NCBI RefSeq assembly: GCF_030013205.1
Contig: NZ_CP122648.1
Length of the DNA: 64,000 bases
From: Escherichia coli
Lineage (GTDB): Bacteria > Pseudomonadota > Gammaproteobacteria > Enterobacterales > Enterobacteriaceae
Strand: one strand, 5' to 3'
The notes beneath the pieces are model-generated. The model made no database searches. It saw only the letters and a list, made by a program, of their open reading frames with translations, and was not told the DNA's origin. Position numbers and translations under genes: made by a program. Position 1 is the stretch's first letter; the number at the start of each line of letters is the position of its first letter. This document shows positions 3,471-56,948 of the stretch, in pieces.

Positions 3471-3820
3471 ATATGTCGCTCGCAGAACTCAACAAGCCTG
3501 CTCATTAAGTAGCAGTAAGTCTCGTTGGCTCTTCCTGGTTCAACATCAACACCTACCCTTGAGCAGATATCGAATGCCATGTGAGCGCACTCATGGGCAA
3601 TAGTAGATAGTTTGCCATTGAACACGCCTATCACATGCAAAACACCATTCTCGCTACTCATTGTATGAGACGCTCCGTTGGCGTCCGAGTCATGCACGTC
3701 AACGCCAAGTTTTTGATGCAGGCGTTGCCATTCTGGAAAGTCTCTACAAAACACAATTGTACCGCTCTCAAAGAGCGGAACGAGCATCTTTGGTACGTTT
3801 CCAATGTTAACTTTTTTCAT
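3455..3820 (-). CDS. Small HExxH-motif protein, putative zinc metallopeptidase-like (moron)
   Basis: 121 aa containing IAHECAHMAFD (HExxH) and several Cys/His residues; AGGA RBS. No homolog recalled. Confidence 0.55.
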   Translation of the reverse strand: MKKVNIGNVPKMLVPLFESGTIVFCRDFPEWQRLHQKLGVDVHDSDANGASHTMSSENGVLHVIGVFNGKLSTIAHECAHMAFDICSRVGVDVEPGRANETYCYLMSRLVEFCERHIKKPE

Positions 3821-52579: not shown

Positions 52580-54148
52580 TTAGCGTGCCGGCTGAGTAGT
52601 CGTGGAAGACTGCTCAAAGTGATAGCGACCGGTTTTCAGGCTGCTTGGGCCGAGGCGTGCATACTTGAACATTAAGAACAATTCTGCCACCAGGAACAGG
52701 GTATACAGGCCGCAAATCAGCACCATTGAGAAGATGAGATCGCCTGCGGTCAGTGACGAGTTCGCCACAGCTGTCGGCAGCACTTCACCGATAGCCCACG
52801 GTTGGCGGCCATATTCAGCCACGAACCAGCCCGCTTCTACAGCAATCCACGGCAGCGGAATACCGTACAGCGCGGCGCGCAGCAGCCATTTTTTCTCGCC
52901 AATGCGGTTGCGGATGACACTCCAGAAAGAGAGCGCGATGATTGCCAGCAGCAGGAAGCCACACGCCACCATGATACGGAACGCGAAGTACAGCGGCGCT
53001 ACACGCGGAATGGAGTCTTTGGTTGCCTGTTGAATCTGCGCTTCAGTCGCATCCGCCACGTTTGGCGTATAGCGTTTCAGCAGCAGACCGTAACCGAGGT
53101 CTTTCTTCATGCTATTGAACTGGTCACGAACCGCCTGGTCGGTAGAACCAGAACGCAGTTGTTCGAGCAGAGAGTACGCCTTCATCCCGTTACGAATGCG
53201 TTCTTCATGCTGCACCATCAGCTCTTTCAGGCCGATAACCGGGGTATCCACGGAACGCGTTGCAATGATGCCCAGTGCGTAAGGGATCTGGATTGCAAAT
53301 TTGTTCGTCTCCTCTTCCTGATCAGGAATGCCGAACAGAGTAAAGGCAGCAGGTGCAGGTTGCGTTTCCCACTCGGCTTCAATAGCAGCCAGTTTGGTTT
53401 TCTGCACGTCGCCCATTTCGTAACCAGATTCATCACCCAGAACAATAACAGACAGAACGGCAGCCATACCGAAGCTGGCAGCGATAGCAAAGGAGCGTTT
53501 AGCGAAGGCGAAGTCACGACCTTTCAGCATATACCATGCGCTGATACCGAGGATGAACATCGCGCCAGTCACATAACCAGAGGCTACAGTGTGAACGAAT
53601 TTCACCTGAGCAACCGGGTTAAGCACCAGCTCGGAGAAGCTCACCATCTCCATACGCATAGTTTCAAAGTTGAAATCGGATGCGATTGGGTTTTGCATCC
53701 AGCCGTTCGCAACCAGAATCCACAGTGCGGACAGGTTTGAACCGAGCGCCACCAGCCAGGTGACACACATATGCTGAACTTTACCCAGACGATCCCAACC
53801 GAAGAAGAACAGACCTACAAAGGTGGATTCGAGGAAGAAGGCCATCAGACCTTCGATTGCCAGCGGCGCACCGAAGATATCCCCTACATAGTGGGAATAG
53901 TAAGACCAGTTAGTCCCGAACTGGAACTCCATGGTCAGACCGGTAGCCACACCCAGAGCGAAGTTGATACCAAACAACTTGCCCCAGAACTTGGTCATAT
54001 CTTTATAAATCTGTTTGCCGGAAAGGACGTAGACCGTTTCCATAATGGCCAGCAGGAACGCCATACCGAGCGTCAGTGGCACAAAAAGGAAGTGGTACAT
54101 CGCGGTCAAGGCAAACTGTAAGCGCGACAGTTCGACTATATCTAACAT
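52580..54148 (-). CDS. cydA: Cytochrome bd-I ubiquinol oxidase subunit I
   Basis: Start at [12 protein letters not shown] (522 aa), one codon inside the track ORF. Confidence 0.95.
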
Positions 54149-54953
54149 CATGACTCCTTGCTCATCGCATGAAGACTCCGAGAGTGAACCCCGTTAGAAA
54201 GGGTCACACGCATGCCCCAATACAAAATTATTTGCTCGCCTCTATCGTTGCCATTTCATCAAAAGAGGAAAAGACAATGATAAAAAAGTTACAAATATGT
54301 TAATGAATAAACCAAATTGATCCCGTAATTATATTACGCCGCAAAATCCTTACAATAAACAGGTTTTTATTGAGCAAATTTGCATTTTTCGACAGTGATC
54401 AATTTATAGCGAAATTGTCACGATCTCACCAATTTGATCTACGACAATTTATCGTGTTTTGCAGATTTTTTTCAAGAATTAAAAATTGATTTATATCAAA
54501 ACCAACCAAATATGTTAATTATGTATAAACCATAGATCATTGGTGATTTTATTGTTAATTTATTGTGAAATATTTATGCAACACAATTATTACAATGAAA
54601 AGGTATAGATAAAAAACCAGTGTTTTATTTAACAGAACCGCCTTATCCACTTTTTATAATACCAATTGATTAGATTAGCCAATTTGTTGCTATTTTACAT
54701 AACATATTTTTATCAAAGTTAATTGATTGTTGCGTTTATGAGCACCGGCCGTAAGCCCGTTATGTTATTGTTTCATTAGTAATAATCACTTAAATGTATC
54801 GATGAAACAGGTATGACTTAGCGGGAGTGATTGTTTCTGAGTGAACAGAGACCACTTTCGCCTGATAAATGAAAAATGAGCGATTTTTGCAAGTTAGTTT
54901 TTCTATAGCCGAGTACGCTCAGCGCCTCGCTTGATTACAATGAGGTTGCTGCT
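54149..54953. promoter_or_regulatory. Long AT-rich region upstream of cydA (cydAB control region) merging into accessory DNA
   Basis: About 800 bp of AT-rich non-coding DNA with TTGAT-containing motifs; cydAB is known to have a complex FNR/ArcA-regulated promoter. Individual sites not resolved. Confidence 0.4.
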
Positions 54954-55898
54954 ATGAGTCCTGATAATATCAGTTCTGCTGTCAATCGCTTCTCAGGTTG
55001 GCCATCTAATGATCCTCTAAAAACAGATAAAGAATCAATGACATCACCCATGACTGTGCAGGTAATAAAGATGATTGCCGCCATCCTTGACCCACATCGG
55101 ATAGTCGTTGGAATCGATACACTTTATACAACGCAGCGCGAAACATTTACCTCAGAGAGTCAACAGCTCATTGAATCAGCATTGCAAACACTTCATGTGA
55201 TGAATTTAAATAACCTGGAAACAAATCTCGATGAGGAAGGTCACTATCTGGCTTTTGGATATAACGTTGACACTCCTGACAGAATAACCGTTTCTGCTTA
55301 TAATGAAAAAAAGCCTGGCTGCTATGGCCAATGTCTTTTAATACAGGATGACGAAACAGACTTATTTAACCTGATAAAAGTTAAAATTTTTGAAGCCAGA
55401 CATAATTATGTCGCTCAATTGATGAGCGATCCGGAATTTATGTTCAAATTTAGTTATAGCGCTCAACAAAATAGATTAGAACCTCATCTTCTGGTTCCCA
55501 CTTATTTCCCTCTAAAAACAAACGAACCGGTTACGCAAGAGGATGTACTGTTACTTTATCGTTTCTTTAAAATGGATGGTGATTTTAATATATTAACATC
55601 AGATGAATACATGAGCATCATGACACCTCTGATGAAGTGTGAGCGCAGCATCCACGACCACAACAGGTATGTGACGGGCAAAGATACCCTTCTTCTGGAC
55701 TATCCTCCTTCTGGTAACCAGATATATTTCCATATTTTTCCTGACGAATCAGCAACACTAGTCCTTTATTTTTCAAACAATGACATTGAATGTTTCGTCT
55801 TTGAAAGAGATATTCCGAGCCAGTATCGCTTTTTCAAAATGTTTACCAATCTGGCACTGGTTATTGATCAGTTAACCGATGCCAATCAAATACTTTAA
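54954..55898 (+). CDS. Hypothetical protein (AT-rich accessory gene)
   Basis: 314-aa ORF with GAGG RBS; AT-rich codon usage unlike the flanking core genes; no motif recognised. Confidence 0.55.
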   Translation: MSPDNISSAVNRFSGWPSNDPLKTDKESMTSPMTVQVIKMIAAILDPHRIVVGIDTLYTTQRETFTSESQQLIESALQTLHVMNLNNLETNLDEEGHYLAFGYNVDTPDRITVSAYNEKKPGCYGQCLLIQDDETDLFNLIKVKIFEARHNYVAQLMSDPEFMFKFSYSAQQNRLEPHLLVPTYFPLKTNEPVTQEDVLLLYRFFKMDGDFNILTSDEYMSIMTPLMKCERSIHDHNRYVTGKDTLLLDYPPSGNQIYFHIFPDESATLVLYFSNNDIECFVFERDIPSQYRFFKMFTNLALVIDQLTDANQIL

Positions 55899-55978: not shown

Positions 55979-56401
55979 ATGATCCCATCTCAAATCTCTT
56001 TCAACACCCTTCCTGTCAATGCAACATACGCTTCAGAGACAACAGTTGACACACAAAAATTCTCTGACATCCTCTACTCAGCGGGGTGTTCCCTAAAGGA
56101 TCTGGCTTATCTGAGCAGATGTCTGGCATCAATACATCCGACTATCGCCAAAAACATTTATGAAACAGAAAATCTCAGCGATCAAAAATTACTACATATT
56201 GATTGCCGTAGTACAAATGAAATCAAGATAAATATCTTTTTTGGTCAACAACGAGAAGGATTAATTGAAATTAGTTCTGACACAGTCATTTTTTCGATAC
56301 TGTCTTCATTGATTGACTCCACCATTTCTAAATTTCAACACCAAAACCCCGTTAACGGTTCTGTAAATCCTGACCTATTGTATGAGGATTATACTGATTA
56401 A
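55979..56401 (+). CDS. Hypothetical protein (AT-rich accessory gene)
   Basis: 140-aa ORF immediately downstream, same strand, acidic C-terminus; no motif recognised. Confidence 0.5.
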   Translation: MIPSQISFNTLPVNATYASETTVDTQKFSDILYSAGCSLKDLAYLSRCLASIHPTIAKNIYETENLSDQKLLHIDCRSTNEIKINIFFGQQREGLIEISSDTVIFSILSSLIDSTISKFQHQNPVNGSVNPDLLYEDYTD

Positions 56402-56948
56402 ATCCCTCCTGTCGCGAAAAATGGCCTGCGTTATTGCCAGACGTAATAAAACTTTTGATTAACGTTTCTCGTACTGGTAGCACCTTCATGTACTTTTCTT
56501 TTTTACGAAAAATCAAAAGAGCTAACAAAGGTCATAATTCGCATGAATCATTAATTATTTGTTATTTTCAACATTATTTTTACATTAAGCAGAGATGAAT
56601 TGCTGTGAAATTCGACTTAACTTTTATGAAATGCATTTACTCATGGCTAAAGCCACGTCACAAAAATGCAAATTAGAAGTTGATCACAATTATCTCAATA
56701 CATCAAATCAAGTTAATTTTAAAAATTTAACATTCATGACATCAGTTGACATAACACACTGAATTAAAATGAGAATTTGAAAACACACTTTAAACAATCA
56801 TTTCCCGAAAGACATTTTGAAAATAGATCAATTGCAACATTACGGTCAGATAAAGACACTCCTGTGATATTAAACCTGTGCCGTTATGAACGGCCATAAA
56901 TACGACGTGTGTAACTTATTTTACTCTCTGTCTTACAAAGGATTACCC

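Follow-up and report, generated by a model that had tools for sequence, protein, structure and literature searches.

The 64,000-nucleotide stretch of Escherichia coli DNA analysed here (the window) carries, in order, tol-pal, ybgC, the ybgE-cydX-cydB-cydA genes, a gap, ORF314, ORF140, a methylaspartate island, and sucD. The island comprises glmS, glmL, glmE, mal, an AtuA-family gene, a DUF4387 gene, a transporter gene, fumD, cobO, and a LysR-family gene. The gap separates cydA from the divergently oriented ORF314 and contains no coding sequence, and the original prediction of an AT-rich non-coding region of about 0.8 kb upstream of cydA was right in both its coordinates and its description (805 bp, 33.2% GC; Table 1). 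The GC content reaches a minimum of 25–26% (300-bp windows, 54300–54749), compared to about 50–57% in the genes on either side. No RefSeq E. coli genome with this sequence has an annotated feature within it, and the only repeats found in the gap are short ArcA-core repeats, mobile-element ends being absent. The spacer had also been called unusually long. It is indeed the longest gap within 25 kb of annotated neighbourhood, but the mngB-cydA spacer of K-12 is likewise long (846–847 bp), so this length is not peculiar to the window strain. For K-12, the spacer has been described as 847 bp long, containing five promoters and binding H-NS (PMC3946193).

At the cydA edge, the open reading frame reaches 54151 (MMLDIV...), whereas in strain 118UI, whose sequence is identical here, RefSeq begins the gene at the second ATG, 54148, giving a protein of 522 amino acids. 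This start is supported by the first ATG being ATA in three other genera. The control DNA described below adjoins cydA directly and runs on into the cydA leader; together, these can account for about 585 of the 805 bp, as far as sequence features allow such an assignment. About 100–200 bp at the far end of the gap would serve the divergent 314-amino-acid gene. Here, a GAGG Shine-Dalgarno motif is located at 54942–54945, 8 nt ahead of the ATG of ORF314, and the plus strand of the gap, which reads towards ORF314, showed no match to a promoter consensus.

The dN/dS of ORF314 (0.34–0.42) marks it as a genuine gene that evolves fast. A Pfam search returned nothing above the cut-off, only five homologues were found among 5.8 billion proteins, all of them apparently E. 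coli-type sequences, and its AlphaFold model (pLDDT 43) is too low in confidence for a fold search. A literature search with the locus tags of the orphan genes gave no match.

Table 1. Features of the cydA-ORF314 intergenic region and its flanks. Positions refer to the window, and distances to the cydA ATG; binding boxes, promoter, and RNA structures are predictions.
Feature	Position	Strand	Remarks
cydA, cytochrome bd-I subunit I	52580..54148	-	start taken as ATG at 54148
Whole divergent intergenic region cydA-ORF314	54149..54953		805 bp, 33% GC
Leader segment GAGUCUUCAUGCGAUGAGCAAGGAGUC, invariant; possible hairpin 2	54152..54178	-	CUUC..UGC may pair with GCA.AGGAG, including the Shine-Dalgarno
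Leader hairpin 1 (GUGACCC...GGGGUUCAC)	54184..54207	-	about 36-59 nt upstream of ATG; compensatory changes
ArcA box cluster III, proximal (AAGTTACAAATATGTTAA, 20.5 bits)	54286..54303		138 bp from ATG; counterpart of K-12 cydA3
Sigma-70 promoter TTGTAA-16-TATAAT	54328..54355	-	predicted start ~54323; matches K-12 start site 770,509
FNR box 2, TTGTCGTAGATCAA in cydA direction	54434..54447		counterpart of K-12 site 770,385 (TTGTTCTCGATCAA)
FNR box 1, perfect TTGAT-N4-ATCAA (TTGATTTATATCAA)	54486..54499		counterpart of K-12 site 770,333 (TTGATATTTATCAA)
ArcA box cluster II, middle	54512..54595		four matches, 13.9-20.5 bits, 364-430 bp from ATG; counterpart of K-12 cydA2
ArcA box cluster I, distal	54699..54733		17.3 + 14.0 bits, 551-568 bp from ATG; positional counterpart of K-12 cydA1
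Most variable stretch, spacer between the two control regions	54736..54849		50-bp windows: 56-70% identity to L086, 70-90% to L087
Conserved DNA upstream of ORF314	54850..54953	+	83-90% identity to L086 vs. 77% for ORF314 itself
ORF314, divergent 314-aa orphan gene	54954..55898	+	distal edge of the gap

The gap is rich in predicted ArcA sites. Using a weight matrix derived from the 115 ArcA boxes retrievable from Table S3 of Park 2013, we found seven matches scoring 12 bits or more within the 805-bp gap, compared to 0.5 ± 0.75 in composition-matched shuffles, and eight matches of at least 9 bits, compared to 28 in the whole 64-kb window. They form three clusters, and their positions were unchanged after the three K-12 cydA sites had been dropped from the matrix. 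In K-12, cydA has three ArcA ChIP-seq regions, cydA1–3 (Park 2013 supplement), and the K-12 matches are located at 135 bp (III), 370–401 bp (II), and 573–618 bp (I) from the ATG. Cluster I is conserved in position though the DNA around it no longer aligns with K-12. Cluster III occurs at 133–141 bp in 13 of 15 Enterobacteriaceae sequences, and a distal ArcA match in the same orientation is present at 549–605 bp in 12 of the 15. The predicted strengths differ between the window and K-12 (20.5 vs. 15.3 bits for cluster III and 20.5 vs. 13.0 bits for cluster II).

Two FNR boxes, spaced 52 bp apart as in K-12, are found about 338 and 285 bp upstream of the ATG, and their K-12 counterparts at 770,333 and 770,385 are listed FNR sites of cydA (Myers 2013 supplement). 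In all 15 Enterobacteriaceae sequences, box 1 lies 328–341 bp from the ATG. The predicted sigma-70 promoter is the counterpart of the K-12 promoter with the mapped start at 770,509. This start yields a 172-nt leader (Kim 2012 supplement, PMC3415461) and coincides with the anaerobic sigma-70 peak in K-12 ChIP data (Myers 2013 supplement). The block around this promoter is almost unchanged across genera and is shared with K-12, with a −10 hexamer of TATAAT in the window vs. TATATA in K-12. In contrast, the DNA underlying the distal aerobic sigma-70 peak of K-12 (770,039) has no counterpart in the window. Promoter consensus matches in the gap show no excess over shuffled sequences (4 vs. 4.9), and of the several cydAB promoters of K-12, one, the counterpart of the 770,509 start, was located here by sequence. 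The two FNR boxes of K-12 are reportedly centred at −53.5 and −1.5 of cydAB promoter P1, as placed by Cotter in 1997. Given the 52-bp spacing, and supposing that FNR box 1 is centred at −53.5, the position given in Table 1 of Myers 2013, the start of P1 in the window would be close to 54439.

A complex, oxygen-responsive cydAB promoter had been proposed for this DNA together with a scan for FNR and ArcA motifs, and that description fits well: the scan placed two FNR boxes and three ArcA clusters at K-12-like distances from the ATG, and the arrangement of FNR sites, ArcA sites, and promoter recurs in K-12, in the Escherichia-like assembly L086, in a B2-like class of E. coli, and in 11 other Enterobacteriaceae genera. 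We therefore consider it very likely that 54149–54953 comprises the cis-acting control DNA and the 5′ leader of cydABX-ybgE, the operon for cytochrome bd-I, with the far end serving ORF314. K-12 has a control region of this kind at the same locus, and the two do not differ over the 76 bp next to the ATG.

The working of the region may be sketched from K-12, on the supposition that protein binding, start sites, and regulation of the window allele resemble those of the K-12 operon. According to the work of Cotter 1997, Govantes 2000, and Lynch & Lin 1996 as cited in PMC3798270 and PMC3688515, cydAB of K-12 has promoters P1–P5 and is controlled by ArcA, FNR, and H-NS. The same papers describe a lowering of expression by FNR under anaerobiosis (PMC3798270, PMC3688515), and ArcA is presented as an H-NS anti-repressor (as cited in PMC3798270). 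By analogy, H-NS would coat and silence the AT-rich DNA upstream of cydA in the window; such binding would be in keeping with the AT-richness (25–33% GC) and the K-12 literature. Under microaerobic conditions, ArcA-P bound to the three clusters would relieve the repression by H-NS, and at full anaerobiosis FNR occupying both boxes would damp expression. Transcripts would be initiated from several promoters, one at 54328–54355 of the type with a leader of about 172 nt and another, P1, near 54439. Hairpin 1 and the invariant segment around the Shine-Dalgarno motif lie in the last ~70 nt of the leader, and any role of these elements is one we infer.

The leader itself is strongly conserved. Its last ~70 nt before the ATG are identical among the E. 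coli alleles and Citrobacter, and the last ~35 nt are near-identical as far as Yersinia, Serratia, and Photorhabdus. RNAalifold predicted two hairpins, and a covariance model was built to which 33 Enterobacterales leaders were realigned. Hairpin 1 shows compensatory changes in all eight of its pairs, a count biased towards structure by the fitting of the alignment to the model. Its covariation score is 0.217, compared to 0.088 ± 0.013 in shuffles (0 of 500 reach 0.217) and to at most 0.057 when the pairing partners were slid. The hairpin is present in both the MFE and the centroid fold of the 182-nt leader, and it matches no Rfam family. Hairpin 2 has eight predicted pairs, none of which varies among 30 distinct Enterobacterales sequences, so it displays no covariation and its structure is a prediction. 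The leader has no extra folding stability relative to shuffled sequences (z = +0.4 to −1.4). Given this shuffle-like folding and an alignment made to fit the model, we treat the base pairs of hairpin 1 as supported by covariation and hairpin 2, around the Shine-Dalgarno motif, as a hypothesis. A partial literature search returned no report of a cydA leader hairpin.

This extreme conservation of the last 70 nt before cydA, together with the length of the gap, its lack of annotation, and the 16 ORFs of 20–50 amino acids that overlap it, could also be taken as signs of a separate small RNA or small protein gene, as the original prediction had allowed for. We regard such a concealed gene as highly improbable. 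An Rfam scan of the gap at a permissive E-value gave no match at the gathering score (best E-value 0.42, to a eukaryotic miRNA family), and all that it returned were chance-level matches to miRNA and snoRNA families of eukaryotes. A scan of both strands of the gap for terminator-like sites was negative. The marks of an independent small RNA, i.e. a terminator of its own, a known family, and a conserved structured unit apart from the leader, were not found. Six small ORFs were followed through the aligned regions of 12 genomes and rejected as candidates: none keeps its frame outside Escherichia and Citrobacter, and all have frameshifts or stops. Finally, the conserved 70 nt run directly into the start codon of cydA and therefore fit a leader better than a gene of their own. 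The element is the already known cydAB control region, an ordinary one with no hidden gene, and as a long control region is expected for cydAB, no new biology is required to explain it.

In this region, the window is 100% identical to E. coli strain 118UI, the layout is the same in O157:H7, and contigs encoding the exact CydA were found in island-type contexts only. In K-12, mngR-mngA-mngB lies between sucD and cydA, so that the upstream neighbour is the co-directional mngB with a REP element, in contrast to the divergent orphan gene of the window. A third class (e.g. FDAARGOS_1261) has only a TPR pseudogene between sucD and cydA. As the island, mngRAB, or the TPR pseudogene may occupy it, the sucD-cydA interval is a replaceable slot, with a long cydA spacer in every version.

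The methylaspartate (glutamate fermentation) island described for O157:H7 (Kronen & Berg 2015, PMC4682846) is likewise located beside the gap in the window, which raises the question whether roughly half of the gap, the part without alignment to K-12, is foreign DNA brought in together with this island. Such an arrival would fit three observations: low-GC orphan genes and the island directly adjoin the gap, the K-12 homology breaks off near 54524, and that to the B2-like class, which lacks the island, does so at 54789. The assembly L086 argues strongly against it. This Escherichia-like assembly, obtained from SRR11658232, is 90.4% identical to the window over 6 kb (SucD 99.7% at the protein level, cydA 94.4% at the nucleotide level) and contains a colinear gap of 804 bp followed by an ORF314 homologue (65% amino acid identity). 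Between this homologue and sucD, only one gene, of 258 amino acids, was found, and the island is absent. Thus, the gap and ORF314 are older than the island, and the gap is not part of it. In addition, some 1,100 E. coli genomes without the island contain 54149–54789, and the part that cannot be aligned with K-12 still has ArcA clusters II and I at their family-wide positions. The full-length gap is found only in 1,135–1,138 island-bearing E. coli genomes, and the remaining ~165 bp (54790–54953) travel with ORF314. An arrival of part of the gap with the island is thus improbable, and for 54149–54789 it is largely refuted. The earlier suggestion that part of the region may be acquired DNA was correct on its contiguity with the island and is otherwise mostly unsupported, as L086 is colinear across the gap and ORF314 without the island.

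A colinear alignment of the whole interval with K-12, which would have counted against the original prediction, was not found. Only 54149 to ~54524 (~376 bp) aligns, at about 80% identity, with no BLAST-level homology beyond, and in the core of the control region (54234–54499) the identity is about 74%. The reason for this mismatch is that K-12-type strains carry a deeply diverged allele linked to mngRAB. Within the core, the proportion of sites differing from the window is 0.8% for the B2-like class, 5.3% for L086 (94.4% identity), 19.6% for Citrobacter werkmanii, and 26.3% for K-12. The cydA coding sequences of the window and K-12 differ at only 15 of 1,566 nucleotides (dS 0.038). Among 5,425 E. 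coli genomes, 2,245 have a core at least 95% identical to that of the window, none falls between 90% and 95%, and 3,180 fall between 80% and 90%. E. coli has two discrete alleles of this region, with no intermediates: allele A, found in the window and shared with L086, and allele K, found in K-12 and linked to mngRAB. The K allele reaches 99% identity or more in 3,177 genomes, and in 3,172 it extends in full to mngB. In a tree of the region, the window, the B2-like class, and L086 form a clade without K-12 in 200 of 200 bootstraps, and the K allele is placed as sister to this A clade with 53% bootstrap support. A partial literature search returned no report of two cydA upstream alleles.

The most plausible history, which we hold to be probable rather than firmly established, is that the mngRAB cassette and the cydA upstream region attached to it were brought in by recombination and took the place of the ancestral version on the line of descent to K-12-like strains, a direction that we infer from sequence comparison. 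The breakpoint can be placed no more closely than between ~76 bp upstream of the ATG and the cydA start, because this leader segment is invariant anyway. Our reserve about the direction has three causes: the mngB-cydA arrangement is widespread, the K allele is weakly placed in the tree, and the sample has no named Escherichia or Salmonella species. mngB is located directly upstream of cydA also in Kluyvera, Enterobacter cloacae, strain RIT691, and Superficieibacter, where the relatives compared are the genera among the matches listed for the CydA N-terminus. The mng arrangement is therefore old in the family as well.

Its being common in the family would also suit a history in which A was imported and K is native to E. 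coli, or the two alleles might have diverged in place through rapid evolution of AT-rich DNA. AT-rich, H-NS-bound DNA evolves fast, the distal gap is only 79–80% identical between A-allele classes, and the K allele and Citrobacter share some character states in the block 100–166 bp from the ATG. These scenarios are rather unlikely in view of the strict bimodality, with no intermediates among the 5,425 genomes, and of the abrupt drop from ~26% divergence in the gap to ~1% in cydA. Moreover, the A allele is only 5.3% away from L086 in the core, and the K allele shows almost no variation, in keeping with a single recent origin. We thus favour a replacement in the K-12-like lineage.

Horizontal regulatory switching in bacteria was reportedly described by Oren in 2014. 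Near-identical core genes with highly divergent upstream regions within one species are also the pattern of switched intergenic regions described with the Piggy tool (Thorpe 2018, PMC5890482), and the cydA case resembles it: the upstream alleles are discrete and less than 90% identical beside a near-identical coding sequence. As both alleles keep the arrangement of binding sites, the swap at cydA appears to involve a diverged orthologue and not unrelated DNA. The adjacent gene cassette is exchanged as well, as in the 'upstream' type of the Piggy scheme and unlike the 'gene-pair' type. In a partial literature search, we found no paper naming cydA among switched intergenic regions.

The dimorphism of the alleles and the conserved leader structure are of modest interest. 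The A and K haplotypes might be old and non-recombining and could set different O2/ArcA thresholds, and the leader could act throughout the Enterobacterales as a post-transcriptional control element of cydA not described so far; we offer both as tentative ideas, with the odds against them. The covarying hairpin and the invariant ribosome-binding segment of the leader are kept from Escherichia to Yersinia without belonging to an Rfam family. As cytochrome bd-I matters for gut growth at low oxygen, the allele differences in predicted ArcA strength and in the −10 hexamer mean that lineages could differ in their oxygen response. The textbook K-12 cydAB promoter is one of two deeply diverged alleles, with about 26% of the core sites being different, and the A allele, carried by O157:H7, O145, and many strains of extraintestinal type, accounts for about 41% of the species. 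If such differences in regulation are real, knowledge gained with K-12 would not be quantitatively transferable to these ~41% of E. coli.

The part of the cydAB control region closest to cydA contains a leader whose hairpin shows compensatory changes in 8/8 pairs when compared across the Enterobacterales; it has no match among Rfam families. The invariant segment of this leader could sequester the Shine-Dalgarno sequence. GGA motifs spaced approximately 20 nt apart make the leader a candidate CsrA target. A two-codon mini-ORF (AUG CGA UGA) in the leader is probably not a conserved upstream ORF, because its AUG is replaced by CUG in Yersinia, Serratia, and others.

Features in and around the cydAB control region (window positions unless stated otherwise)
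Feature	Position	Strand	Remarks
Conserved cydA leader	54152-54207	minus	Hairpin and invariant 27-nt segment
Two-codon mini-ORF	54162-54170	minus	Within invariant leader; own GGAG upstream
Direct repeat CAAATATGTTAAT	54292-54304 and 54507-54519		Exact, 13 nt; copies 215 bp apart
Third FNR-like site TCGACAGTGATCAA	54389-54402		Weaker; 2 mismatches; ~241 bp from ATG
ORF314	54954-55898	plus	Orphan gene, 314 aa, low GC
140-aa ORF	55979-56401		Orphan gene, low GC
Second long AT-rich gap	56402-56948		Between 140-aa ORF and glmS; GC minimum 27%
cydA1	L001 (K-12 locus) 3719-3750		Strongest K-12 ArcA site; 19.8-20.2 bits

Further upstream, the two copies of the direct repeat form the cores of the predicted ArcA-box clusters III and II, and 13 of 15 sequences from Enterobacteriaceae have a site similar to the third FNR-like site at a distance of 231-244 bp from the ATG. 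In K-12, cydA1 and an aerobic sigma-70 peak at 770,039 both lie in K-12-specific distal DNA; the window allele has no sequence counterpart of this DNA. In other strains, IS elements are inserted at the gap upstream of cydA (L092, 1920-3148; H61, NZ_AP027520.1). An IS3-family transposase separates a truncated ORF314 from cydA, and an IS1 is inserted within a K-12-type spacer; thus, the AT-rich spacer tolerates insertions.

Neither orphan product beside the gap contains a Pfam domain, and the ORF314 protein has only five homologues among 5.8 billion proteins. Its AlphaFold model (pLDDT 43) is of insufficient quality for use. A homologue with 65% amino acid identity (dN/dS 0.42) adjoins cydA in a divergent Escherichia-like genome lacking the glutamate island (the methylaspartate-pathway genes beyond the orphan ORFs), so ORF314 predates this island. 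The second AT-rich gap lies upstream of the glutamate mutase operon, where the glmS start is placed at ~56949 in RefSeq vs. 56886 for the longest ORF.

Kluyvera, strain RIT691, Superficieibacter, and Enterobacter cloacae (L008, L009, L010, and L014) carry mngB, encoding mannosylglycerate hydrolase, directly upstream of cydA, with 72%–79% amino acid identity to K-12, and sucD occupies this position in other genera. The sucD-cydA slot is variable family-wide.
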